Below, one piece after another: positions 9,101 through 59,774 of a DNA stretch of 64,000 bases (its first letter is position 1; each line of letters begins with the position of its first letter). The stretch is from NCBI GenBank assembly GCA_050084515.1, contig CM114271.1, positions 12,090,001 through 12,154,000 on the forward strand, given 5' to 3'. The DNA comes from Blasia pusilla (Eukaryota). A program made the translations under genes and the position numbers. The notes under the pieces are model-generated. The model made no database searches and was not told the DNA's origin. It saw only the letters and a list, made by a program, of their open reading frames with translations.

Positions 9101-9981
9101 TGTCGTGCGCATACACATCGCTACACAACAAACATCGCTGTCACCGAACACACACACAAACACGCATGATCCCATGCTAACTCATGACATCCAAACAACA
9201 AGACAAGAAGTACCAAAATATCTCCAATAAAATAAGATCGAATCTCGCTCACAACACCATAGTTCTCACATGTATGCACTCTCACATGTCTCTCTCAATG
9301 TCAAACCAAACCCACTCTCCTAATGAGAGGCTTGGGTTACACACACAAGGAAAGCAACAACAGAGCTCCGCCGCCTCATGCCAAGAGGTTCAACAAAGAG
9401 AGAATGAGCTCTCAAGCCCACTCTCCTAATGAGAGGCTTGGGTTACACACACAAGGAAAGCAACAACATAGCTCCGCCGCCTCATGCCAAGAGGTTCAAC
9501 AAAGAGAGAATGAGCTCTCAAGCTCTCTCTCCTTGAGGTATACCCCTCCCCTCTCCCAAGCTCTCTCCATGGTAACCTATGCTCCCAAGTCACCTCCTTG
9601 GCTCTTAACCTGATGTAGGAGGTCAAGGGCTACTTACCAAAAATAGAAATTGGATCATATACTCAAAATGGTACTTGCCTAAAATAGTAAGTTCCTCAAT
9701 ATGGCTCCAAATGAGCCGAAACGAAGGAAAAACCTGCTCTCTCAGGTTTTCCGGGGCCTCAACAAGTCATCCTCGACCTATTGAGTCTATCCTCCACTAC
9801 TCACGAAGGCCCTCTACTAGATCTCACCGATCTATCGTAAAAGAGGTGACAGCTGTCGTGCGTATACACATCGCTATAAAACATACATCGTTGTCACCGA
9901 ACACACACACAAACACGCACGATCCCATGCTAACTCATGGCATCCAAACAACGGGACGAGAAGTACCAAAATATCTCCAAT
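9101..9981 (-). repeat. E1 3' terminal repeat block Y-gc-X-Y
   Basis: 128-bp Y at 9101-9228 and 9854-9981 flanking X (9229-9851); X is homologous to 23144-23658 and 15947-16461 and contains a ~106-bp tandem duplication (~9311-9525). Confidence 0.85.
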
Positions 9982-10984: not shown

Positions 10985-11980
10985 TGTCGTGCGCCTACTC
11001 TCCTTGAACGTTAGTCTTGTTGTTGCAGAAGCGTGCGTTCAATAGGTCACGCTCTCAACGCTGATCTGCATCCAAACACGCACTCTGGTTAGTCGGGTCT
11101 TGGATCAATCAGTGGGCTAACTTTCCGAGTTCTCGTCTTGGTCTCTCATCAAGCTCACCCTTCCTAGTTTTGCGATTTACAACACGAGCAAGTCTTGCAA
11201 GACTTGGGACATACTTTCTGGTCGGTTTCGCGCCTGGCCATTCCAACTTTTTGATGGACATCCAATGAGTCCCTAACCGAGACTCGCATGAAGTGAATCT
11301 CGGATTGGAATCCAAGTGTGGCGTACAAAGTCTACTCCCTTGGATCAAGTTTGGGTTTTGAGTTCCAACGCCAAACTCTCGTTCCATCCCGTGCCTCTGA
11401 GATGCCGTTTGGCGCTCAAAGTGGGGATTCGTGTTCCAAGACATCTTGGAGAGACTCCTCCCTCACTAGTACTTCTAGGGATCTCTTAGGTCCCCCTACC
11501 TTTAGGGAAAGACACCGGGGCCTCTCCAATTGGCCCTCAACCCGATTGCTCTCACAGTGGTTTTCGGCCAATATCTCAGTCTGTACTTCTGCGTTTGATG
11601 AGATCTTTGGTGCATTGGAAGCGTCTCAAGATAAGCTCTTACTTGTCTTGAACGTATCTTGGGACAAAACGTTATGGTCTGAAACACAGTTAATTCCCCA
11701 AACGCTAGTCGTGCTCCAAAATTGGTTCTCACCTCCTTGGCAACCAACCTTCCAAGACTCAACTCATTTCAAGTCTTGGTTCGCATTTGGTCTAGGTTTC
11801 CTGGTTGTGACCACTAACGCACGAAACACACAAATGTGTTCCGCGTTTTGTCTCTTGGAATTTTCCAAGAGACCTTTCCAAATGCCTCTCCAAAGCGCAA
11901 ACATCGCAGCGTGAGTCCACTTGGGTTATGATATTCCGCTTGGCGCCTATTTGGTGTTGTTTGTTATGAGGGTCGTGACA
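10985..11980 (-). mobile_element. Solo LTR of the chromovirus family at 54570-61899, inserted in the E1 integrase
   Basis: TG...CA ends; perfect 5-bp TSD CAAGG (10980-10984 and 11981-11985); homologous to 59335-61899. Confidence 0.92.
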
Positions 11981-14539: not shown

Positions 14540-15133
14540 CCTAAGCTGAAAATCATGTCAAGCAGTTCACGTCCATTGCCTGACCTAAGAATGACGTTGT
14601 GATGCCTCTGATAGTGACGGTACTGCCGTCACTCCTATGGGGAATCCCATCGCTCGCTCTTGCTCATCGGCGTTAGGCTCCACCAACCTCTGTACTTGGT
14701 CATCCCAAACCAAGCCAAGTCCGTCCTCCTTGAATGCATAGGAAGCGGGAAAACTCACCAATGTGGCAAAGGCTGCCCGTGGCCTGCCAATCCTCTTGAC
14801 CACAATCAACCGTGGTTGATCATCTAGCCTCATTGTCTATGATCGACGGCCCAGATCCAATATAGAATCCACCAAAAAATCGAAGGGGCGCTCCACTCTC
14901 GCATATGCCCTCCGCAACACCTCGTGTGGTACCTAGTTGGTCTACCAAAGACGCGGGTGATGTGCTCATGAACCCACACTCGCCGCATCCAACAAAACTG
15001 CCGGGCCGATCCATGCGCGCATTTGATATGCACTTGTCACCAGACGGGACCTCAAATCGCCCAAAATCAATACATTCTCCATAATGTATACTGGAGGACG
15101 AGACTGATGCTCCCGAAATTGTCGCAAGATCCG
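14540..15133 (-). pseudogene. E1 DNMT3-like C5 methyltransferase, C-terminal half (motifs VI, VIII, IX, X)
   Basis: VYIMENVL; GS*AHHPRLW*TN; EQERAMGFPIGVTAVPSLSEASQRH. Confidence 0.8.
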
Positions 15134-15496
15134 TGTTGTGCGCATACACATCGCTACACAACATACATCGTTGTCACCGAACACACACACAAACACGCAC
15201 AATCCCATGCTAACTCATGGCATCCAAACAACGAGACAAGAAGTACGAAAATATCTCCAATGTTGTTGTGCGTATACACATCGCTACACAACATACATCG
15301 CTGTCACCGAACACATACACAAACACGCACAATCTCATGCTAACTCATGGCATCCAACCAACGAGACAAGAAGTACCAAAATATCTCCAATATCTCCAAT
15401 ATTTTGGTACTTCTTGTCTCGTTGTTATCGTGCGGGTTTGTGTGTGTGTTCGGTGACAACGATGTATGTTGTGTAGCGATGTGTATGCGCACGACA
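15134..15496. repeat. Y-Y-inverted-Y foldback built from the E1 terminal Y repeat
   Basis: Direct copies at 15134-15261 and 15264-15391; inverted, internally deleted copy at ~15399-15496 ending in CA. Confidence 0.85.
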
Positions 15497-15879
15497 TATT
15501 GCTCGCAGCCTTACATTACTACCGTGCTTCTCAGTATAAGCTCGCGACGATGCTGAAGGAAAAACTAATTCTGTGACGATTCTCACACTCTAAGAGCCTG
15601 GCCAACCCTTGAATTAGTCAAACACTCCACAAAGTGTTTCCGGCCAGCTCTTGGATACTCCCTTGAAGATATGGCCATTGTCTGATCAGTTGATAACGAC
15701 CCTGTCTAACACAATTGGCGTGTACACCCGCCTAAGCTACGATTGCTACGATTTTTCCCTCTCTCCCTCCTTTCTACCTATCACAGTGTGGCACTAAATG
15801 CATTCAAATTCTACCCTATAAGTCGCTACCTGAACCTCCAACTCACAACACAATTCTCCCTCTCCTTCTCCTTCTCCCT

Positions 15880-15884
<5 letters not shown>

Positions 15885-15946
<62 letters not shown>
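15885..15946. repeat. (CT)n microsatellite, about 31 units
   Basis: Read directly from sequence. Confidence 0.98.
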
Positions 15947-15949
<3 letters not shown>

Positions 15950-16570
15950 CACGTCTTTTAGGATAGATCGGTGAGATCTAGTAGAGTGCCTTTGTGAGTA
16001 GTGGAGAACACGCTCAGTAGGTTGAGGATGACCTACTGAGGCCCCGGAAAACCTGAGAGAGCAGGTTTCCATTTCGTTTCGGCTCATTTGGAGCCATATT
16101 GAGGAACTTACTATTCTAGGTAAGTACCATTTTGAGTATATGATCCACTTTCTATTTTTGTTAAGTGGCCCTTGACCTCCTACATTAGGTCAAGAGCCAA
16201 GGAGATGACTTGGGAGCATAACTTACCATGGAGAGAGCTTGGGAGAGGGGAGGGGTATACCTCAAGGAGAGAGAGCTTGAGAGCTCATTCTCTCTTTGTT
16301 GAATCTCTTGGCATGAGGCGGTGGAGCTATGGTGTTGCTTGCCTTGTGTGAGTAACCCAAACCTCTCATTAGGAGAGTGGGTTTGGTTTGACATTGAGAG
16401 AGACATGTGAGAAAGCACACACTTGAGAGCTATGGTGTTGAGAGAGATTGGATCTTATTTTACAAAGAGAGAATGAGTGAGTGAGAGAGCTTCATGGGGG
16501 AGCTTGCTGGTTGTTCAATGTTTGGTGCAGGTTGGGGGACCGTGTTCCCTGCTTCATGGCTCATGAGAGT
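15947..16570 (+). mobile_element. 5' end of another E1-subfamily copy (X repeat, PBS position, start of leader)
   Basis: Starts TGTCAC; reverse-complement homologue of 23030-23658. Confidence 0.88.
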
Positions 16571-19823: not shown

Positions 19824-20032
19824 AGAGAGAGCTTGAGAGCTCACTCTCTCTTTGTTGAACCTCTTAGCATGAGGCGGCGGAGCTATGGTCCCTTGCCTTG
19901 TGAGTGCAACCCAAGCCTCTCATTAGAAGAGTGGGTTTGGTTTGACATGAGAGAGAGTGCACACCTTTGAGAGCTATGGTGTGAGATTGTGTAGAGAGAG
20001 ATTGGATCTTACTTTACAAAGAGAGAATAAGA
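19824..20032 (+). repeat. Inverted partial copy of the E1 X repeat (transcribed part plus PBS position)
   Basis: Near-identical reverse complement of ~23127-23335. Confidence 0.85.
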
Positions 20033-30700: not shown

Positions 30701-32122
30701 TACTAGGCCTTGTCTTTTAACTATTTCAAACCCTATCACTTTCTGCCGTACAGACTAGCCAGAGTAGCCAGACCAGTACAAACTAGTTGAAAATTTGATG
30801 AGTGATGAGAACGTGTCACCTAAAATCACCAGAGCTCTCTTCCGCTATTGTAGAGATTTGAAATCTTTTGATAGTGCTCAAAGACAGTATGTAGATGCTC
30901 TAGAGATTTCATATCTGTTATCGTGTTGGATCTCAATTGGTGGTCCAAGTGCTGTTTCTTTTTAATACACTCAGTATCGTGTCGGGAAGAGGCTATGCCT
31001 TAACTGCTTTAGGGATGTTTTTGCAGAATGGGTCTTTGCTGATTTTTGACTTACGACAAACATCATCTCCCATTGCCTCATGGAGTGGTGCCAACATTCG
31101 TCCAATTCATACTCTCCAAGCAGTTGCTGGTCAATCGAGGCAGGAGGTAGTGAAGAGAGGTGGGAAAGGAATCCTAAGTGCATCCAGCAGTGGTGTGTAC
31201 TTTTGGGAGCTGGGCTCTTCAGCAGATATGAGTGAAACAGTAAGGTAATACAATGAACTTCCTCTTTGTTCAGGCGGACATTCTCGTGCATGGTATGTTT
31301 TGCTTTGGGACAACTGGAAAAGAATGACTCTTGTATGCAACTTGTACAACTGAGTGATTCACAACATTCATGCAAAAGAGAAATGCATGTGCACAACCTC
31401 AAATTCTGTTCCACGAAATGTTCTAGTTTCGAAACTAAAGTTTTCAGGGATCTAATTGATGCGCTGGTGCATGTTGCAGGCCATACTGTATCTCAGATTT
31501 CCAGAGGGAAAAACTCTGCGTCTCTCTTGTTTATGAGTCCTTCATAAAATCTGCAGTAGCTTCCTTTAGACCATCTCCTTTGGCTCACACTGATTCCTCT
31601 TCATGTACACCTGGATCATCTGAAGTGGACAACTCGAGCCAGCCATTAGGTGCCACTTTAGAGCCTAGTTCAACTACACGCCCAACCACTCAAGATAGCC
31701 CATCTCATTGCATTTTTAGCGAGACTAACATGCTTTCTTCTCTGCAAAGTAATGAAGAAAGCCATGTCAGCGATACCAGTATTACGTCTGGAGAGAGTAC
31801 CTCAGGAAATAGGTCTTTGTGGCGGTGGGAAGTGGGAAGAGCTATGGTGGGTCACAAGAGTCACAGCGTGATGCCTCGATCTGCGATCATACCAGAGCGG
31901 GATCTCACAACAGGTTTCAAACCGCTGTTTGCTAGTGGAGATGAAGGCTCAAACTCCGTTTGGTTGTGGAATATGGAATCGCTCGGAGTCGTACAGACTC
32001 TTATTCCCCACCAATCACCAGTTCTAGATGTAAAATACGTACAGGTTGGAGGAAGAGATGTGTTGGGTTGTGTAAGTGAGAGAACTTTTCAGCTCTACCG
32101 GCGGCTGTCTTCGACACTTTAA
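24742..32122 (+). CDS. RFWD3: RFWD3-like RING finger and WD40 E3 ubiquitin ligase. Predicted exons: 24742-24861 (tentative), 25418-27300, 27506-27584, 27875-27973, 28127-28171, 28461-28496, 28721-29182, 29296-29406, 29699-29850, 30170-30209, 30550-30612, 31027-31244, 31480-32122
   Basis: Split RING [34 protein letters not shown]...CPHC; coiled coil; WD40 blades (AIRDIRFSP, PWSCAWDP...YSGLQNGSLLIFDLR, ASGDE, HQSPVLDVK); GT-AG introns with consistent phases. The first exon is the least certain. Confidence 0.9.
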
Positions 32123-37908: not shown

Positions 37909-40900
37909 AAAATTTTTTTTAACAGTCATTTTAACTTAATTTTTAATAATTTTATTAGTTAAAAAAATTTAATATAATTTTTTTCAAAATTTTCAACACG
38001 AATTTTCAAAATGAATTGGAGGGTCTCTCCAATAATAACAAGTGTGCGCCCCCCTCTCTCTAGCAACATATTTAAATACTTTAGGAGTAATGAAACATGT
38101 TGGTTTTGCAATAAAATGGCGACTTAGTGGAGTGAAATGCCGAGAATCGATGGGCTACATTTGTATATGCGATAAGGTTACATATGTAAATCGAAGTGAG
38201 ATGTGGATAAAACATTTTTGTAACAAAAAGAGTGGTGAATATGTATTTTGGAAATAAGATTCCTGCGGTTCAACGTGAGTGAATATTGAAGTAAGGTATG
38301 TAGCCACTAAAAGGTAGTGGTTCTATGGCATGTAGCCATTGGAACGTTGTGGTATTGTGGATTTGAAGTATTTTCCAAAAATGATTATTATGAAGTAAGC
38401 CTTCATAAATGGACTAGAAATACCTGGATTTAAAATAAAATAAAATTCGAAACTAAAATTTAATCATGGAAAAGAATTCATAGTTATGAAAATAATCAAA
38501 GAAAATGCATTTTTCATTTGATCACTAATATTCAAATTAAAATGATCTTATTTAAGTTCATACCATATATTTATGGTAATTTTTAAAAATCTAAAATTAT
38601 TTTTTAACCCATTTAATTTAAATTATTTTTCCCATATACTATTGGATAATTTTCAAATTCTTTTATAAATCATTTACATACATATGAGTATAATTACTAT
38701 ATAAGTCGTGAGGATATGATCGTATTGGTTTGGTAAGTCATAAAAATGAATTTAAATCAATGAAGTCATAATTTGAGTCATTTTGTACACAAGTCATTAA
38801 ATGGTGAGTTATAAAAACCAACTGTCTTATATGGATAGTTAGTCTAGATATGGCTGAGCAGAGACGAATGCGAGTGTCATCCATGCCGTGACGTCCACGA
38901 GTTAGCGCATTGCCTACAGGATCTCTAGAGGCATTGGCTGGGGATGAGATGAGGGAAGATAGGCACCCATGGACTTCTTGGGACGTCGTTCGAGTAGAGA
39001 GTGAGAAGGCAGCTAGAGTAGCATATGTTCATTTTTCAAGTGTGGAGCATGATGTGGGAGGTCAGAGAGGAGTAACTCTAGCGGAGGTGGCTAGGATTGC
39101 TACATAGAAATCAAAGCCGAAGGTTGTGTTCTCTTCGAGTGAGGTCACGATGGAGACTTGGCAGCTTGCGATAAGTCTCGAGTTGACAAAAGGAGAGAGA
39201 CGGCAGATGTATACATAGGTTTGTGAGAGGGCATGTGGGTTGTTTTGCCTGCAATATGAGAGACTTGGGTACTTTGAAGTCTCCCGCGATACGAATAGCT
39301 AGATTTGGCTAGTGATACGCCAATCTTTCGTCGATCCTACAGGTATTCTGACATGGAGCAAGCCTTGATTCTGAGTAGGAGTCAAGACTTCTGGGAGGCA
39401 GGATTGTTAGAGTTATTGCATGGGGAGTATGCGTATGCCACAATCACACCAAAAAATAAGGATATATGGCAACTAGATGGATAGATGGATGTGTGGAGAT
39501 TACCGTCCTATCAACCTAAAGATGAGGTCAGATCGGTACGCCATGCTTACTCCTGCGGAGATCTTTGATGCGGTAGGGCATGCAAAGATATTGATTACTT
39601 TAGATCTCAGTGCTGGCTATCATCAACTTCCTATTAGTGTGGAGGACAGGGAGCAGACAAGATTTTGGGGGACAGATCATATCAAGAGATATTGTTTGCA
39701 TCAGTGGCGGTTCTTAGCATTTGGGTTGAAGAACGCTCCTGTGGAGTTCCAGAGAGTGAAGGATAGGATTCTGGCTAGCTTTGATTTTGTACGATGTTAC
39801 ATAGATGATATTCTTATCTTCAATTCCTCGTCCGAGAGCATGAGCGACACCTGGAGAAGGTGTTTCAACGATTGCAGTTACATGGACTGAAGTTACATCT
39901 GGGAAAGTGCAGGTTCTTTCAAGAACAGATCGAGTACTTAGGACACACCATAGATCTAAGTGGGTTAGGTGTTCAGCTAACGAAGGTGGAGGCTATTGCG
40001 CAAATTCCATGGCCTATAGATGTGAGTCAAGTCGGAGCATTTTTAGGACTAGCAAACTTCTATCGAGGATGTGTCAAGGGTTTTAGTGCGATGGTGAAGC
40101 CTTTGAGCTTGTTGATTAGACTTTATCAAGTTTGGCATTGGGGAGATGATGAGGAGCAATCATTTTAGGAGCTCAAGGATAGGTTGATGTCCTCATCCAT
40201 TCTACAGAGATTGGTTATGGGTCGTCCATTCTAGTTACATACGGATTGGAGCATGTTGGATTAAGGAGTGATGCTTACTCGCAGAGATAACGAGGAGAGG
40301 GAGTTTTTTGTGGCTTATGTGAGTTGATCGAACAACATTGTAGAGACAAAGTACAATTCCTACAAGAGAGAGTGCTTGGCTGTAGTATGGGACGTGGCAC
40401 ATTTTAGATGCTGTCTATTCGGGAATCCTTTCACACTTATCATTGATCATCAACCGTTTAAATGGTTGATGGAGTCCGACAAGCTGATGGGGTAGCTTTC
40501 CAAGTGGACTCTATTACTACAATAGTACTAGTTTGAGATGGTTCATAGGCCAACTAGTTGGCTAATCCAAGATGCAGATATTTTGAGTCGCAACCCATGC
40601 CCGAGTCAGAGATACGACATATATAGGAGCTCGATGGCACGAAGAGAGTGATGAGGAGATGGTGCCTGCTTGGCACAAATCTGTCTTTCTTTATTGCTTG
40701 ATTATGTCAGATCAGTAGCAGGTGGTGACTTTAGTGGTGGGATCAAATGATGAGTCTCAAGATCCGGAGGTCAATAAGGAGGCGGCAAGTAGTCGTGATA
40801 TCCATGGCGATGTGCACGTGGAGGTTGTGGAGTTTCTATGGAGTGGCATCATAGCGAGCACAATGAATAATACTAGGGAGCGGGATCGGATCCTATAGAG

Positions 40901-41291
40901 AGGTTCACGTGGGAGGGAACACACATTTTACTGGTATGGGGAGATGGTAGGGTCCGAGTGGTGCCTCATCCTTCCCATCGAGGTTTCATACGCATACACA
41001 TCGCTACACAACATACATCACTGGTCACATCCACACCACACAACACCGATCTTCCCCACACACGGGTAGATCCACACATGTACAAAAATCAACTCATACA
41101 TATACATCGAGATCACACAACTCTCATGTGAAAATAAAGAGTAGTAAAAACGGCACACCCGGTCTAAAACTCCACTCCTCAATCTACATTGACATATTGA
41201 GCCTTGTCCACCCTGTGCTATCAAGAAATCCAGACGCTAGCACCTAGTCCTAACTCACACACACGAGCAAGAATGGTACTCCAACGGCCCT

Positions 41292-44200
41292 ACATGAGAA
41301 AGATGTCAAGGGGCTGGTGGGAATTCATTGTTTGCAGGTAGGCAAGCGAGTTGCCTCGGTAGGGAGCCCCTGGATATGCTGGTTGGCATTTTATTGTCGT
41401 TTTTTCGTTCAAAAAGTTGTGCGCGGAATCGCTGTTCATTTTTCTTCTTAGATCTTGCTGGTGCAGGTGAAGAGGGACAATAGCAGAGTGGGAGTCGAGC
41501 AAGAGTGCTTGGGTGCAGCGCAAAATAATGCTGGAGCGACAAGAGAAAGGTGCACAACGGGAGTATAGAGAAAGAAGCATATTGAGAGCTTGTAGCCGCC
41601 AAGGGGCTAGGGTTGCAAAGGTGTCTAGGGCTAGGGTTAGGTCGCAGGTGACGGCGAGCTGAAGCCGGGGCGGAGGCAGATGGAAGGCGGAATAGGGCGG
41701 ACAGAGCTGAGGGCGGCGAGCTACAGAGCCGTAGCCCTTGGCCGCGACCCTTCCCTTCCCTTCCACGTTACCCCCCCTCCCCCCCCACGTGGTTGGGAGC
41801 ACCATGTTCGGCGCCTTCCACATCAGAGAGACATACGTGGTACGGGGCAGACATGGTTGGTAGGAGCAGACGTGGAACGGGACAGACGTGGTCGGTAGGA
41901 ACAGATATGGTAGGAGCAGGGCGGCGGATGTATTAGGGGCCAAGGTGGACGTAGTAGGATGACATGGTAGTGGCGTGGGAGACGTGGTAGACGGGAAGCC
42001 ATGGTTGGGGTCGGACGTGTTTGAGTTGAGTTACGTAGTGGGAGAGCGTTGGTGAGACTTGGTATTTCACGAGCATGGTGGGATTTGCGACGGGAGTTTG
42101 GCACTTATTACGAGTCAGTTGGGGTTCGACTCATTAGTTCTTCACCGCTTGGGATTTGTGAGGATTGTGATGGAGACACACTTGTCGATGCTGATGGGTA
42201 GTCTGCATCCATTGATGGGAAGTTTGATGCATGTCGAGGAAAGTGTTGTGTTGCGGAAGTTGCCGTACCACATGGAGGAGTGAGTGTTGACGATGGCGTA
42301 GGTTGGAGGGCGTGATCATGTCACCCATTCGAGTCCCTTTTCCCACGCTTATCTTATATGATTGAGAGTGCTAGGTATGGGGTAGTTGTTAGGGCTAGAT
42401 GGGTGTAGCGATGGTGACGAGTGTAGTCTCCATGCATGTGTAGCATGTATGTGGATATACGGTGGTTGCCAAGTAGGGATCACCCTTTTTAGTCAAGAGT
42501 GTCGGTAGTTTAGGTGAGTTAGTTGGGAGGCTCATGGTGAGCCCGAGTGTTGAGTGTGCGTGAGGCCAGGTGTGTCATTACGGGATTACCATTAGCGTAG
42601 GTGAGCTAGTGAGGAGTGTGGGAGACTCTTGGTGAGTCTAAGTGATTGAGCGGGTGAGACAGGGTTGTCATCACGGCGTTCTTCTTGTGTTCAAAAGAAC
42701 GGGGTAGTGCGAGCAGTAGTAGTGGTGTGACACGGAGTGGAGTGAAATACCGAGGGGTTACGAGTGAGGAGCTACCTCGAATTCCAGCCATGGTTGGATC
42801 GTCATCACTGAACAACAGGTTTGGTGACGAGATCGCAGATGGAGACAATGTCACTTGGAAGGAGATGGACGACATGGGCCACCGGGGCATGCGTTGTTTC
42901 TCGGGTGCAGTGAGCACCATCGACTTAGATGACTTCATCCAAGAGTTCGACACGTGGTGCGATTTCCAGGAGATATGGACCCCGACACGGTTCAACCCTT
43001 TCATGGCATGGAAGGGATTATTCCAGCACTTGGAGGGTCTTCCGATGGATGATTACATAGAGTTCCAATCTTTATACTCTATAGAGATTGATGCCTGGAG
43101 GGTGTATTGGGCTCCACGGTATGTGTCCACTAATGGCCGCAAGGTGTATGATGGGATAGTGAGAGTGGAGAGACCTACTCCATCAGCCCAGGGACTAGAT
43201 GGAGAGGATGGCAGTGAGAGTGGTGAGATGCCAGAGACCTCACATGGTAGAGGACCATCGAGTTTCAGTCCTACGATGGAGTTCTTCTCACAGTTGGGGA
43301 GGAGCTACCAAGGCGTGTTGATAGACAAGCTGAAGAGTCTACAGGATTTTCATCGGAGATCACGTGAGAGTCTGAGGGAGGCGTTCATACGCAGGCGACG
43401 GTTGATTGTTTCCACATATGGGGTGAGTGAGGCGTAGTGAGTGCAGTATTGGTACGGGGTGTTGGATGAGGAGCTATGGAGGAGAGTTCGGGATGCGATG
43501 TTGCTTCACACAGCAAAGCCCATATTGAAGGTGATATTCGAGTTGTCTGAGTGGGTAGAGCTCAACATGAGTGAGGAGGAGGTGATGACCATGGGATTTT
43601 CATGGGATTCGACATATTGATGAGTAGGAGTAGACCCACAGGTGCCCCAGTATGCACCAATACCACGAGAGTGGGGTGGTGGGCCTAGAGAGCAGGGCGG
43701 GTATCGTGAGCCCATGAGGCAATGGTGCGTACCGACATATGTTTCCCAGTAGAGACCAAGATTGGCTTGTTGGACGTGTGGTGGGCCACATAGGCACAAA
43801 GACTGCCCAGAGCATGGTAGAGGGCCTAGGGTGCCTTCGAGTGTTCAGGAGCCACCTAGGATGGCCCCACCACAGTTGCAGTGTGATCATTGTCATCGAT
43901 ATGGTCACACTAGGGATAGGTCTTTTGATCTTCGCCAAGCGGTACGTCCAGAGGTAGGCAAAGGGCCTGGGGGCGAGAGAGTTGGTGGAGATCGAGGAGT
44001 TGATGATCGTGGTGGTAGAGTGCCATCATCACTCAGGGGAGATGGAGGACGTGCAACTGATGCAGCGCTCCTCACTCGCATCGATCAGTTGGAGCAGAGG
44101 ATTGCTGCCATGACAATGATGTAGCCAGTGATAGGCACGGAGCCGAGAGTAGTTAGTGTGGCTCCAGCCTCCACGTCGTATCAGGATACGGGGGAGGACT

Positions 44201-44420
44201 ATACGGGGTTGAGGTTTATGTGCAGTGCAACTCAGGTTGAGGCTGCTGCGGTGGTGACTTGGGGTGCTGCGAGAATAATCGAGCCATCAAGAGGTGGGGT
44301 TTAGATTGACCCACAGGAGGGGACCGATGGGTGACAGGCCAGGGTTCCCTAGTCGTTTACATTTTCAGAGGCACTACATACACCGTCGATGGTGCCTCGA
44401 CAACCAATAGTACACACGAG
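41292..44420 (+). mobile_element. Inverted duplicate of the E2 leader and gag, inside the E2 3' repeat block
   Basis: Reverse-complement homologue of ~50520-53642; gag 42673-44124 with CWTCGGPHRHKDC and CDHCHRYGH knuckles. Confidence 0.88.
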
Positions 44421-47400
44421 TAGTAAAAAAGGCACTCCACCCCTCAATCTACATCGGCATATCAAGCCTTGTCCATCCTGTGCCATCAAGGAATTTAGAC
44501 GCTAACATCTAGTCCTAACTCACAGACACGAGCAAGAATGGTACTCTAACGGCCCAACATGAGAAAGATGGCTTGGGAAAGCCATCTTCCTACCTTATAT
44601 AGGGTTGGGAAGAGCCAAAAGGCTCTTCCTCTAAAAATAGCTATCCTTATAGTAACCTACGCGCACAGGTTACCAAGGGCGGATGACCTTCTCAACAAGT
44701 CACTCGGCTGTGAAAGACCTCAACAAGAAAGTTTGTCAGAAACGACGTTCCTGACACAATGGACATATCCTCAACCTCATCTCATACCTCGGGACAAAGT
44801 TACACTCAAGACAATCCGCTGGCTCCTACGCCCTATCCACGATAGATCTCGGCCTATCAACCACTCAGATGTGACAACTATCGTGCGCATACACATTGCT
44901 ACACAACATACAGCGCTGGTCACATCCACACCACACGACACCGATCTTCCCCACACACGGGTAGATCCACACATGTGCAAAAATCAACTCATACATATAC
45001 ATCAAGATCACACAACCGCCCCCCTAGCTGGCAGTTGGACCCCCCAAACTCCAGACAAAAAATATCACATCTCCCTAACATGACTTACTACCCTATACAC
45101 ATTTCAAACATATCCATCGTCACGTGGAAACTACATCAAGAGGAGGGTCAGACATGACATATGCCACCATCGAGAACAACCATCACATGCCAACATGGTG
45201 GGTGAACCCCTTGTAGATCCGCACAACATACACCTCAAGCTTGCAAGTGCCACTGCCAAGCTCGGATCTAGTGTCCCGTCCATGTTTGTAAGGTGACATG
45301 GCGCACAATTGTGCACAAGATCCTTCCAAACCATACCATCCCATCCCTCCAACATGAGGACTCGGGTTGGTAATACCTCGTGCACACATAGGATTGTGCG
45401 CCCTACAGTGACATCTAGCGTCGTGGGTGCGACCTGTTGCACATATACATAATCTCTAAGATGAAACCTCCTAATCCTTGGACGATAACCTCCTCCACAA
45501 ATGGTTGCGTACCTCAATGTATCCCTATGCTGAGCAATAGCTAAGTTCTCAAAGGACACGAACATAACTCTACAAAAAATCTCCGCCCTCTAAGAACATG
45601 CTTGTACCCACACATCTGAATCATCAAGATCTAACACCTCTACCATGTCACGTCGAATAGTTGCAGGTAAATCTGGCTCTCTCCAAAAGAGTTAACAATA
45701 TGATGAAAATGACGTTGAGGATGCCTTTTGACTAGATAACCCATAGCCAATCAGGGCAACTGTAGGTCCCACTCCCTCAACTATCCCCGTTGCAAGCCAT
45801 ACTTGCGCAATCCTCTCTTCACCGTTTGTACTATTCTTTCCGCCAACCCATCCCCCTCAGGATGATCTCTCGATGTGATGCGGTGATCTATTAGCGCCTG
45901 ATCACACAAGGCGTGAAAATCTCCCCTGAACGCGGTACCCTAGTTAGTCAACACCTTTGCCGATGCACCAAAGTGACTAAGCACACGATCTAGAAATGCA
46001 TAAGCTGTTCTCTCGCTCGCCTTGTCTGGTAGTGCCACCAACTCTATCCACTTGGAGAAATGCTCCACCATAACCAACATGTACCTGTGATGACGCCCCG
46101 TCAAAGGCAAAGGTCCCGCGAAGTCTAAACTCTACCGATAACCTAAACCCATAATTGGTAAAGAATGTAACTGTAGAGTGGGAGCATTGAAGGATGCTTG
46201 CACTCGGTCACATACCATACATCTAGCCACAAACTGCTCTACCCTAGTATGTATGCCGCTCCACCAATACTGAACCTCGAGTAAGCTGTAAGTACGCTTT
46301 ACTCCAAAATGCCCCAACTCCTCATGGGCATGTCGCACTACACGTGCTTGCTGGGAAGGATGAGGTACCACTTGTATCCTACCATCTCCCCATACCCACA
46401 AAATATGAGTCCCCTCCCACCTGAACCCTCTGGGTCTCTATAGGATCCGATCCTCTCGCTATGACGCCAATACGCAAGAACTCCACAACCTCCACGTCGT
46501 CATGGATATTAGGACCACATGTCGCCTCCTCACTGACCTCCGGATCCAAAGACTCATCATCTGACCCCACCACTGGAGTCACCACATGCGGCTAACAAGC
46601 CATAATCAACCAACAAAGATAGGCAGATGCTTGCCAAGTGGGCATCATCTCTTCATCACTCTCTTTGTGCCATCGAGCTCCTGTGTCGTCTCTCTGACTC
46701 AAACATGGGTTACGACTCAACCCATTCGCATCTTGGTTCAGCCGACCTGGCCCGTGAAGCACCTCAAACTCATACTCTTGTAGTAATAGAGCCCACATGG
46801 TAAGCTTTCCCGTAAGCTTGTCGGACTCCATCAACCACCTCAACCGCTGATGATCAGTGATAAGTGTGAAAGGGTTGCCGAATAAATAGCTCCTGAAATG
46901 TGCCACAGCCCATACTGTAGCCGAGAACTCTCCCTTATAGGAGCTGAACTTTGCCTCTCCAATATTTTCTGATTGGCTCGCGTTAGCCACAACGAACTCC
47001 CTCTCCTCGTCATCCCTCTGAGTAAGCACAGCTCCTAGACCCAACATGCTCCAATCCGTATGTAATTGGAGTGGGCGACCCCTAATCGGTCTCTGTAAAA
47101 TAGGTGAGGACATCAACTTGTCCTTGAGCTCCTAAAATGCTTGCTCCTGATAATCTTCCCACAACCAAACCTGATCAAGTCTCGTCAACAAGGTCAAAGA
47201 CCTTGCGATCGCACTAAAACCCTTGACATACCGTTGATAGAAGTTCGCGAGTCCCATAAACGCTCGGACTCGACTCACATCTATAGGGCATGGAATTTGT
47301 GCAATAGCCTCCACCTTTGTCTACTAAACACCTAATCCACTCGGGTATATGGTGTGTCCCAAGTACTCAATCTGCTCTTGAAAGAATCTACACTTGCCTG

Positions 47401-52400: not shown

Positions 52401-55400
52401 CTAACTCACCTAAACTACTGACACTCTCGAGTCAGACACGTGACCCCTATTCGGCAACCTCCGTATATCCACAGACATGCTACACATGTATGGAGACTAC
52501 ACTCGTCACCATTGCTACACCCATCTAGCTCCATCAACTACCCGATACCAAGCACTCTCAATCACACAAGATAAGCGTGGGAAAAGGAAATCGAATCGAT
52601 AACCTCCAATCTACGGCACCGTCAACACTCACTCCTCCATGTGGTATGGAAACCTCCGCAACACGACACTCTCCTCAACACATGTCAAACCTCTTATCAA
52701 TGGATGCAGACTACCTGTCGGCATCGACATGTGTGTCTCCATCACAACCCTCGCAAGTCCCAGTCGGTGAAGAACTAACGAGTCGACCCCCAACCGACTC
52801 GTAATAACTGCCAAACTTCCGTTGTGAATCCCACCATGCTCGCAAAACACCAAATCTCACCAATGCTCTCCCACTACGTAACTTAACTCGACCACGTCCG
52901 ATCCCAACCATGGTTGCCTATCTACCACGTCGCCCCTGCCTCTACCACGTCGCCCGCACCACTACCATGTCACCTTACTACGTCCACCTTGGCCCCTAGT
53001 ACATCCGCCGCCCTGCCCCTACCACATCTGCTTCTATTGACCACGTCTGTCATGTATCACGTTCGCCCCTACCGACCACATCTGCCCCATACCACGTGTG
53101 TCCCTCTTACCACGTCGGGAAGGCACCGTCGATGGCGCTCCCAACCACGTGTGAGGGGGGAGGGGGTACATGGAAGGGAAGGGTCGCGGCTCTACGGCTC
53201 ACCGCCCCTGGCTCCGTCCGCCTCTGCCTCATCCCGCCTTCCATTCACCTCCACCCCGGCTCTGACTCGCCATCACATGCGACCTAACCCTAGCCGCGCC
53301 TAGCCCTAGACGCCTTTGCAACCCTAGCGCCCCAGCGGCTACAAGCTCTCAACGTGCTTCTTTCTCTACACTCCCGCTCTGCGCTATTCTCTTGACGCTC
53401 CAACAGTACTCTGCGCTACACCCAAGCGCTCTTGCTCGACCCCCACTCTGCTGTTGTCCCTCCTCATCCGCACCAACAAGATTTGAGAAGAAAAATGGAG
53501 AGTGCTTCCGCGCACAGCTTTTTGAACGAAAAAATGACAACAAAATGCCAACCAGCATATCCAAGGGCTATCCACCAAGGCAACCCGCTTGCCTACTTGC
53601 AAACAACAAATTCCCACCAACCCCTTGATATCTTTCTCATGTAAAAATAAAGACTAGTAAAAACCGGCACACCCGGCCTAAAACTTCACTCCTCAATCTA
53701 CGTCGGCATATCAAGGCTCGTCCACCTTGTGCTATCAAGGAATCCAGATGCTAGCACCTAGTCCTAACTCACACACACGAGCAAGAATGGTACTCCAATG
53801 GCCCAACATGAGAAAGATGGCTTGGGAAAACCATCTTCCTTCCTTATATAAGGTTGGGAAGAGCCAAAAGGCTCTTCCCCTAAAAATAGCTATCCTCCTA
53901 GTAACTTGCACGCACAGGTTACCAAGGGCAGATGACCTTCTCAACAAGTCATCCGGTTGTGAAAAACCTCAACACAAAAGTTGTCAGAAACAACGTTCCT
54001 GACACAAGAGACCTATCCTCAACCTCATCTGACACTTCGGGACAAAGTTACACTCAAGAAAATCCGCTGGCTCTTATGCCCTATCCACGATAGATCTCGG
54101 CCTATCGGCCACTCAGATGTCATAGAGCACATGTAGTGCAACATGTCCACGAGGATTTGGGCCATTTTGGAGTAAAACGTACTTACAACTTACTCTAGGT
54201 TCAATAATGGTGGGGTGACGTGCATACTAAGGATCGACAGTTTGTAGACATGTTCATGATATATGACCGAGTGCGAGCATCCTTCAATGCTCCCACTCTA
54301 CATTTGCATTCTTTTCCGGTTATGGTTTTAGGTTATTAGTGGAGTCAAGACTTTGCACGACCTTTGCCATTGACAGGGTGTCATCCTAGGTACGTTTGGT
54401 CATGGTGGAGCATTTCTTCAAGTGGATAGAGTAGGTGGCACTTCCGGACAAGACGAGAAAGGGAATGGCGTATGCATTTCTAGATTGTATGCCTAATCAT
54501 TTTGGTGCACTAGAGGAGGTGTTGATTGACCAAGATACCGAGTTCAAGGGAGAGTTTCAGGCCTTCTGTTTACTAAACTTTTCTAGTTACAACGGGTTAT
54601 TGGCCCAAGCTTCCCGGTCACAAGTTATGTCCTTTGCTTCACCATGTACTAACGTATGTGCCTATCTTGCATCCATTTGAAGTCTCAAAACGCCTCTTGC
54701 GCGTGTTCAAGATTTGCCTCCGCAATCCAAGTTGCCTCTTTCACATGGCAGCCTTTCTACTTGACCAAGTACTCATACTTGGTGGCTCTATGTCTCGAAT
54801 GTAGAATGCTCTCCACTTCAAACTCTGGTTCCTCATTTCTGATGACCGGTTGTGGTCTCAACACAATCCTTTGTTCCGGACGCACATTGTCTTGAAGACA
54901 CTTCTTCAATAATGACACATGGAAAGTCGGGTGAATATTGAACTTGTTGGGAAACTCCAATATGTACACATCCGCAAACGGCTTTGCCTTGATCACATAC
55001 GGTCCAACATACTTGGCTGAAAATTTCGTGGACAATTCCTTTGGAAGAGTGAGATTCTTTACACTCAACCACACTTGCTTCCCAACTTGGAAACTCACTT
55101 GGTGCAGAATTTTGTTAGCATGCTTCACGTACATTAGTTAAGCCTTGGAAAGAAAACTCCTTGCTCGCTCTTGTCGTTCTTGCATTTCCACAAACGAACA
55201 TTTTGCCGAGTTATGAGTGTGTGACGATGTAGTGCCCCTCGAAAGGGCCAAGTCAAGAGGCCCTTCTGGTTCTCTTTGATACGCCAGAAGAAACGGAGAT
55301 TCTTCGGTTGCAGAATACTTGGTCAAGTTGTAACAATACTCAGCCATACTAAGCCACTTTGCCCAATCTCTTTGGTCCGCACTCACGTAATTCCTTAAGT

Positions 55401-59320: not shown

Positions 59321-59332
59321 GCTTTGATACCA
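59321..59332 (-). promoter_or_regulatory. tRNA-Met primer binding site of the chromovirus
   Basis: gctttgatacca on +, 2 nt from the LTR end. Confidence 0.88.
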
Positions 59333-59774
59333 CGTGTCGTGTGCCTACTCTCTTTGAACGTTAATCTTTGTTGTTGCGGAAGCGTGCATTCAGTAGGTCA
59401 TGCTCTCAACGTTGATCTACATCCAAACACGCACTTTGGTTAGTCGGGTCTGGATCAATCAGCGGGCTAATTTTTGAGTTCTCGTCTCGGTCTCACATTA
59501 AGCTCAACTTTCCTAGTTTCACGGTTTACAAAACAGGCAAGTCTCAAAAGACTTGGGACAAACTTTTTGGTCGGTTCAAGAACCTCAAATTTTTTTCGTG
59601 CCTGACGGTTCCAAATATCTGATGGACATCCAATGAGTCCCTAACCGAGACTCACACAAAATGAATCATGGGTCGAAATCCAAGTGTGGCGTACAAAATT
59701 CCTTGGATCACGTTTGGATTTCGAGTTCCAACGCCAAACTCCCGTTCCATCCCGTGCCCTTGAGATGTTGTTTG

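Follow-up and report, generated by a model that had tools for sequence, protein, structure and literature searches.

Candidate self-complementary primer binding sites in a family of PHD-finger Ty3/gypsy retrotransposons from Blasia pusilla

The 64,000-nucleotide stretch of Blasia pusilla DNA analysed here (contig CM114271.1 of assembly GCA_050084515.1, positions 12,090,001 to 12,154,000; hereafter the window) is a nest of decayed plant-type long terminal repeat (LTR) retrotransposons. Two related elements on its minus strand, the second of which is called E2, carry the Pfam domains RVT_1, RT_RNaseH, Integrase_H2C2 and rve in this order, followed by a PHD finger, and copies of a further subfamily, E1, are also present in the window. 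Both in E2 and in an E1 copy the nucleotides (nt) directly after the 5' repeat are an exact complement of a segment inside that repeat, here called the arm, which is predicted to be the beginning of the element's transcript. The best reading of this arrangement, and in our view a probable one, is self-priming of the Tf1 type, in which the element would use the 5' end of its transcript as the primer of reverse transcription.

The order of reverse transcriptase (RT), RNase H and integrase, the latter with rve and an H2C2 zinc finger, assigns the elements to the Ty3/gypsy group (Metaviridae). Between the gag and RT of E2 lies a match to the C5 DNA_methylase domain PF00145 (31.6 bits; cut-off 22); this fragment contains PCQ and ENV motifs and shares 33% identity with the N-terminal part (residues 78-172) of P0024, a metagenomic Pol of 1516 aa. 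The best solved relative of the P0024 Pol in the PDB is Ty3 (E 2.2e-94), which indicates membership of Ty3/gypsy only. The nearest named integrase homologues belong to the liverworts Calypogeia fissa (81-83%) and Riccia sorocarpa (79%), followed by Sphagnum and Closterium, and the 62 integrase homologues list the PHD finger PF00628 in 37 cases and PF00145 in two. Comparison with a protein cluster atlas returned generic retroelement clusters only (best score 0.89).

The 5' repeat of E2 (A1, named X in the original prediction) is 89.7% identical to positions 44434-44872. It had been claimed that the 13 nt directly following this repeat complement an arm inside it, and direct reading bears this out: ACATGAGAAAGAT, at offset 0 after A1, and ATCTTTCTCATGT are exact complements in 13 of 13 positions. 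As a test against chance, the sequence at offset 0-3 past the repeat was compared with the repeat for their longest exact reverse-complement match, and 2000 dinucleotide shuffles of the repeat were treated alike; none of them reached 13 nt. The first 20 nt after the E2 and E1 repeats are free of TGG, which first appears at +24 and +34 respectively, in agreement with the earlier claim that a TGG-type transfer RNA (tRNA) primer binding site is absent. The 3' repeat copy of E2 retains only 8-9 nt of the primer site, at the junction of its units A2 and B2.

In the E1 copy at 16 kb (E1-16k) a different pair of sequences, CTCATTCTCTCTTTGT and ACAAAGAGAGAATGAG, stands in the same relation, pairing in 16 of 16 positions on direct reading as had been predicted, and no shuffle reaches 16 nt (0/2000). 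The E1 copy at 23 kb (E1-23k) has two tandem copies of the site, each complementary in 14 of 16 positions to an arm with two changes; its exact core of 11 nt, which starts 171 nt before the end of the repeat, was reached by 1/2000 and 3/2000 shuffles in two runs. Measured from the start of the arm, the repeat ends after 176 nt in E2, 178 nt in E1-16k and 176 nt for the 16-mer of E1-23k. At an E1-type 3' end the repeat copy 9853-9229 carries the arm twice (9514-9499 and 9408-9393) through a 106-nt tandem duplication (9307-9518), and is followed by unit B2 without a primer site. The complementarity in E2 and E1 is confirmed as an observation.

Relatives were sought by an alignment of 15 Pol homologues, which led to 79 metagenome loci (704 kb). 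In locus L026 the motif TATAAAA is followed 31 nt on by TAGTTTTTCTA, whose exact complement (11/11, and 15/16 on extension; 4/2000 shuffles) starts with the base next to the 5' repeat. In L012, TATAAA is followed at the same distance by AGTTCTTTGAGT, with ACTCAAAGAACT at offset 0 (12 nt; 3/2000 shuffles); the 5' repeat of this locus shares 89-91% identity with the 3' repeats of L011, L018 and L019. L033, a decayed member of the L026 family, is counted as a miss: its site contains a 1-nt indel and the arm of its 5' copy has two changes, and its 3' repeat copy still has the L026 arm. A partner at offset 0 is present in five of the six junctions at which a second copy defines the repeat ends (E2, E1-16k, E1-23k, L026 and L012). 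The 3' repeat copies of window positions 9229-9853, L011, L018, L019, L026 and L033 all keep the arm and continue into B without a full site, which implies that the partner belongs to the internal region, as a primer binding site does.

In ten further loci only the start of the repeat is known, and the best inverted repeat within 1 kb downstream of it was compared with 300 shuffles. It measures 16 nt in L001, L007 and L059 and 14 nt in L028 (0/300 shuffles each), 14 nt in L003 (1/300) and, more weakly, 12 nt in L055, L070 and L075 (4-6/300); that of L035 is not significant (10 nt, 90/300), and L063 has no inverted repeat within 1 kb of the repeat start. L075 shares the upstream context TTCCCAAGCC with E2 but differs in its arm, and its site matches that different arm. 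These ten loci have a sequence other than B past the site, and in their contigs the 3' repeat has most likely been fused to the continuation of the 5' repeat, as happens when repeats are assembled. All in all the site sequences are unrelated in at least seven families, each matching its own repeat. When all sequence upstream of Pol was scanned for inverted repeats, 11-mers occurred at about the chance rate; a TATA filter reduced these to five candidates in four loci, two of which are the L026 and L012 arms that were later confirmed. A TATA-anchored scan after 14 junction palindromes found nothing, because these families mostly have no consensus TATA.

Two coincidences of sequence between families were seen among these loci. 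The 13-nt arm of E2 occurs exactly once in the 79 loci, at L012 9972-9984, the very end of U5 and 7 nt before the different primer site of L012 itself, where about 0.02 exact matches are expected by chance. The B unit of the L026/L033 family begins with ATACATGAGAA and shares ACATGAGAA with the E2 primer site (L026 14344-14354 and 14772-14785; L033 14291 onwards), which may be a coincidence or a trace of shared ancestry.

The arm also holds a characteristic position relative to the promoter. Counted from the first T of the TATA box, it begins after 31 nt in both L026 and L012 and after 32 nt in E2; the distance is 30 nt for the 16-mer of E1-23k (box TATATAT) and 28 nt in E1-16k, where the upstream motif is a weak GTATAC only. 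The TATATAA box of E2 is present as predicted but starts at 53850 and not at 53851, one base off, and the spacing of about 26 nt given for it holds when counted from the last base of the box. The arms of E2 and L012 begin with an A that follows a pyrimidine (C or T); in the arms of E1 and L026 such an A comes 1-3 nt further in. These distances and the A after a pyrimidine fit the TATA spacing and the initiator rule of RNA polymerase II promoters, and judged by such motifs the arm would be the 5' end of the element transcript.

Pairing between arm and site was further assessed with RNAalifold on six sequences (E2, three E1 copies, L012 and L026), which recovers a terminal stem of 11 pairs; by the program's own count 9 of these have changed on both sides. 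A separate count of the same stem gives 93.8% of cells paired and both-sided changes in 8 of the 11 pairs; none of 500 shuffles reaches any of the four measures, and sliding the partner by 1-3 columns leaves 45-72% pairing. Minimum free energy (MFE) folds of the leader pair the arm with the site in three of the four window copies (E2, E1-16k and E1-23k), with arm-site pair probabilities of 0.71-1.0 in E2. The idea that pairing is conserved while sequence is not is thus upheld, both by this stem and by the recurrence of the arrangement with different sequences in other families.

It is proposed that the 13-16 nt downstream of the 5' repeat form a self-complementary primer binding site. Transcription would begin about 28-32 nt past the TATA box inside the repeat, so that the arm becomes the 5' end of the RNA, which would then fold back across the R (repeated) and U5 (unique 5') regions, some 130-180 nt, to pair with the site. 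In Tf1 the duplex is 11 bp long and RNase H cuts after nt 11; by analogy, the element's RNase H would nick the RNA at the 3' border of the duplex, and the released RNA of 11-16 nt would prime minus-strand strong-stop DNA from the U5 end onwards. The site would be rewritten in each cycle when plus-strand synthesis copies the primer, and for this reason arm and site could stay complementary while their sequence drifts between families. What is directly observed is the complementarity with its position, its recurrence in families of different sequence and the absence of a tRNA-type site, and all predictions of Tf1-type self-priming that sequences can address are supported; offset 0, the position of the arm, covariation, 3' copies without a full site and the lack of TGG together favour the tRNA-independent priming put forward originally. 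Transcript start, arm cleavage and priming are, by the same analogy with Tf1, the presumed steps of the scheme.

Several points weigh against self-priming. The window copies are decayed and carry many stops, so any activity is historical. The E1 arm is CT-rich and its repeat GA-rich, so that alternative pairings exist; in the MFE fold of a further copy, at 19.8 kb, the arm pairs with an internal GA run and not with the site, and the stem is still 72% paired at a slide of +2 because the E1 sequences are CT/GA repeats. The sequences used for covariation were trimmed at arm and site, which anchors the ends of the alignment, and the covariation fits either copying of the arm into the site or selected pairing without telling which, since reverse transcription would itself copy the one into the other. 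In the ten further loci the repeat end is not independently defined, as the contigs probably join a 3' repeat to a 5' continuation, and adjacency of site and repeat is not established there. An inverted copy of R-U5 and site (19824-20032) begins 16 nt upstream of the arm, unlike a product initiated at the predicted start.

A last objection is that the stem could be a structure of the leader RNA that closes R-U5 and acts in packaging, dimerisation, strand transfer or translation control, with reverse transcription started from some other primer. That the stem encloses the whole of R-U5 and dominates the MFE folds would suit such a role, as would the fact that priming itself is argued from analogy. 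We nevertheless regard this as improbable: no alternative primer site and no TGG within 20 nt are present, the site occupies the exact position of a primer binding site, and the sole precedent for this geometry in the text of a survey of plant elements is self-priming (PMC6317226, Neumann et al. 2019). Furthermore, the inverted copy 19824-20032 stops at most 1 nt from the end of the 16-nt site, as expected of a strong-stop product.

Half-tRNA primers are described for plant copia lineages in the text of the same survey (PMC6317226), and it may be asked whether the site binds a host tRNA, half-tRNA or other cellular RNA, with the match to the repeat being secondary. This is very unlikely, as the at least seven families with unrelated sites would each need a different cellular RNA, none of the sites starts with TGG, and the tRNA-type site of a conventional gypsy element in the window (E4) looks quite different; ARAGORN finds no tRNA in the window and one in the 79 loci, too few to compare with the sites.

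Equally slight is the probability that the arms are terminal inverted repeats belonging either to a foldback insert within the repeat, similar to a miniature inverted-repeat transposable element, or to a segment there that can invert. The right arm is not contained in the repeat, and 3' copies lack it or have it incomplete; the left arm keeps its place relative to the TATA box in unrelated families, and R-U5 has no bracketing target duplication. Inverted repeats do bracket R-U5, and two inverted copies are present: R-U5 at 41122-41305 is inverted relative to the adjacent site-leader segment 41291-44405, and 19824-20032 is inverted inside its element. Upstream of the 41 kb inverted copy, B and not U3 is found, which speaks against a simple flip. 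The two segments at 41 kb are joined inside the shared 13-mer, and the joints of both inverted copies could be template-switch fossils or nested insertions. Chance or a low-complexity match is rejected, for although E1 is CT/GA-rich and 11-mers arise by chance in scans of whole upstream regions, no shuffle reproduces the E2 and E1-16k matches, other families have a match in the corresponding place, and the covariation controls support a real stem.

With these alternatives weighed, self-priming of the Tf1 type is retained as the preferred reading. The Tf1 self primer is reportedly not removed, which the A2/B2 joint of E2 with its 8-9 nt of site resembles; this joint and the 19.8 kb fossil fit the self-priming model without proving it. 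At both 41.3 and 19.8 kb the first 3.1-3.6 kb of the element (primer site, leader and gag) is followed by, or fused to, inverted R-U5.

Table 1. Coordinates of the retrotransposon features discussed in the text (window positions unless a locus is named)
Feature	Position	Strand	Remarks
First PHD-family element	~10.1-15.2 kb	-	Pfam
Second PHD-family element (E2)	~44.9-53.6 kb	-	Pfam
E2 DNA_methylase remnant	49143-48823	-	Pfam
E2 RVT_1 remnant	47968-47327	-	Pfam
E2 RT_RNaseH remnant	47131-46595	-	Pfam
E2 Integrase_H2C2/rve remnant	46437-45943	-	Pfam
E2 PHD remnant	45589-45134	-	Pfam
Region homologous to the E2 C5 methyltransferase	14594-15133	-	
E2 5' repeat A1	54122-53643	-	starts TGACATC; aligned to its 3' copy
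E2 TATATAA box	53850-53844	-	direct reading
E2 5' arm ATCTTTCTCATGT	53818-53806	-	predicted first 13 nt of transcript
E2 putative self-complementary primer binding site ACATGAGAAAGAT	53642-53630	-	offset 0 after A1
E2 G-run tract CTAGGGGGGCG	45027-45017	-	
E2 B1	45016-44879	-	follows G-run tract
E2 B/A junction GATAGTTGTC	44882-44873	-	overlaps end of B1 and start of A2 by a few bases
E2 3' repeat copy A2	44876-44434	-	~50 nt short in U5; arm at 44569-44557
E2 second R-U5 copy	41305-41122	-	ends with 8-9 nt of primer site
E2 B2	41121-40983	-	3' end of inserted unit
E2 target duplication TCGAG	40978-40982		partner TAGAG at 54123-54127
E1-16k 5' repeat	15947-16461	+	
E1-16k arm CTCATTCTCTCTTTGT	16284-16299	+	
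E1-16k putative primer site ACAAAGAGAGAATGAG	16462-16477	+	
E1-23k 5' repeat	23658-23144	-	
E1-23k arm	23319-23304	-	two changes
E1-23k putative primer site, tandem copies	23143-23128 and 23119-23104	-	each 14/16
E1-type 3' end	9992-9101	-	
G-run of E1-type 3' end	9992-9982	-	
B1 of E1-type 3' end	9981-9854	-	
Palindrome GACAGCTGTC of E1-type 3' end	9857-9848	-	
A2 of E1-type 3' end	9853-9229	-	
B2 of E1-type 3' end	9228-9101	-	
Inverted copy of primer site, leader and gag	41291-44405	+	80.5% identical to E2 53643-50528
Inverted copy of R-U5 and primer site	19824-20032	+	97.6% identical to 23335-23127, the 5' R-U5-site of its own element
E3, third PHD-family copy	38822-40977 and 54126-54569	+	split by the 13.1 kb E2 unit
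E4, conventional gypsy element	56.4-59.8 kb	-	Pfam; also RT
E4 gag and protease	59138-57324	-	Pfam
E4 primer site TGGTATCAAAGC	59321-59332	-	2 nt past LTR end ...CACGACA; conventional TGG type
B-A-B end of L026	14303-14952		metagenome locus
B-A-B end of L033	14291-14913		metagenome locus
B-A-B end of L011	6513-7072		metagenome locus
B-A-B end of L018	5071-5640		metagenome locus

The 3' end of the family is not a second LTR but a succession of units B-A-B, preceded by a G-run tract, and L026 and L033 show the full layout A-coding-B-A-B. The B/A joint is the conserved palindrome GACAGCTGTC; the exact 10-mer has 14 occurrences in the 704 kb of loci, where about 0.7 would be expected. With one mismatch allowed, 21 of the 57 loci that extend at least 300 nt past Pol have it in that part, seven of these 21 also having a B2 tail, and a BLAST screen for B..B gave candidates in 13 of 54 loci, eight with B1 starting within about 60-180 nt of the Pol end. 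The units start with TGTC or TGAC, end with ...GACA and are flanked by short target duplications of 4-5 bp (CCAA/CCAA in L033, TCGAG/TAGAG in E2), of which that of L026 matches in only three of four positions. In all six 5' ends (E2, E1-16k, E1-23k, L012, L026 and L033) A occurs without B directly upstream. Three B units without an adjoining A lie at 15134-15504: two form a tandem on one strand, and the third stands head to head with them on the opposite strand. The 16 kb repeat begins some 450 nt further along, behind an extended (CT)n run that stops near 15946.

A tentative and rather doubtful explanation of this layout is that the integrated unit is TG-A ... B-CA, and that the B/A palindrome represents two integrase ends head to head, as at the junction of a 2-LTR circle, with the A2/B2 joint being the expected joint of U5 end and U3 (unique 3') start. 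Self-primed reverse transcription would yield conventional (B-A)...(B-A) DNA, the ends of which would be joined or bridged, and the DDE integrase would open one palindrome to give the permuted A...B-A-B insert. That none of the six 5' ends has B directly upstream of A speaks against an integrase opening either palindrome of a circle at random, and no reverse-transcription scheme could be derived that gives A...B-A-B deterministically. If the circle-junction reading were true, an integrase-bearing element would have converged on the repeat logic of DIRS and Ngaro, and the inverted R-U5 fossils at 41 kb and 19.8 kb would be by-products of a minus-strand 3' end that matches the start of R.

To our knowledge, self-priming has been established experimentally only for Tf1 and predicted in plants only for Tcn1 and TAR. 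The survey cited above treats it, in its text, as established for Tf1/sushi and predicted for 12% of the plant elements surveyed, namely Tcn1 and TAR (PMC6317226). The PHD family resembles Tf1 of Schizosaccharomyces pombe and other Tf1/sushi elements in that the sequence after the LTR complements the predicted start of the element's own transcript, in having no tRNA site and in its Ty3/gypsy Pol order, and the at least 11 nt of complementarity to the LTR interior that define the Tf1 type directly after the 5' LTR are found here as 13/13 and 16/16. It differs in that the chromodomain of the Tf1/sushi-Tcn1 chromoviruses is replaced after the integrase by a PHD finger (none of the 62 integrase homologues lists a chromodomain), in the C5 DNA methyltransferase within Pol, in repeats of the order A-coding-B-A-B instead of two LTRs, in arms of 11-16 nt and in its streptophyte hosts. 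The plant Tcn1 clade (moss and club-moss) and the copia lineage TAR likewise have self-priming predicted from sequence in non-seed plants, according to the text of the survey (PMC6317226), but Tcn1 elements have chromodomains and ordinary LTRs, unlike the PHD family. For SM-Tcn1 neither a tRNA nor a self primer was found, as stated in the relevant passages of Novikova 2010 (PMC2864245). The words Marchantia, liverwort, Klebsormidium and PHD are absent from the text of PMC6317226, supplementary tables aside.

The closest parallel in layout is KnitGypsy-Dnmt3 of Klebsormidium nitens, for which passages of de Mendoza et al. 2018 (PMC5890265) describe DIRS-like repeats (A-coding-B-A-B) with Gypsy domains. 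It shares with the present family a gypsy Pol with a Dnmt3-type methyltransferase and the layout seen in the window elements, L026 and L033; in contrast, a priming mode, a palindromic B/A junction and target duplications do not figure in those passages, and 'primer binding' has no occurrence in the text, supplements aside in both cases. The repeat order A1-internal-B1-A2-B2 is also that of DIRS, Ngaro and PAT, which use a tyrosine recombinase, whereas the elements here have a DDE integrase (rve), ends of the TG..CA type and target duplications of 4-5 bp. A literature search retrieved no report of self-priming in the PHD/methyltransferase lineage, in liverworts or in charophytes, nor of gypsy elements with a PHD integrase, the supplements of PMC6317226 and PMC5890265 aside. 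The mechanism and its prediction in plants are thus already known, and what appears to be new, as far as sequence can tell, is its likely presence in a PHD/methyltransferase Ty3/gypsy family with A-coding-B-A-B repeats.

Predicted self-priming would here span a deep lineage, with Pol identity down to about 35-55%, in which the integrase has a different tail, the PHD finger, and a DNA methyltransferase is often present. The variety of arm sequences provides a natural covariation series on the requirements of a primer. Annotation software designed around a tRNA site and a pair of identical terminal repeats will score such elements as having no primer binding site or no LTRs. The A-coding-B-A-B order with its palindromic junction raises the question of how an element with a DDE integrase regenerates its ends, and the end structure of the family merits a separate study.

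The remaining elements of the window illustrate its nested history. The E2 unit is inserted in the integrase gene of E3. E4 shares Ty3/gypsy gag, protease and RT with the PHD family, which differs from it in having no TGG site; the E4 site TGGTATCAAAGC is presumably of the ordinary initiator-tRNA (tRNA-Met) type, one mismatch from the usual plant site. A conventional site of this sequence is assigned to 59321-59335 and also to 10985-10997, both on the minus strand. The terminal motif ...GCACACGACA of the E4 LTR recurs at the end of B in the PHD family, pointing to related recognition of ends by the integrases. Amid the transposons, an open frame at 31460-32122 on the plus strand has a weak match to the WD40 domain of the E3 ligase RFWD3 (46.3 bits against a cut-off of 47) and is probably an exon of a host gene.

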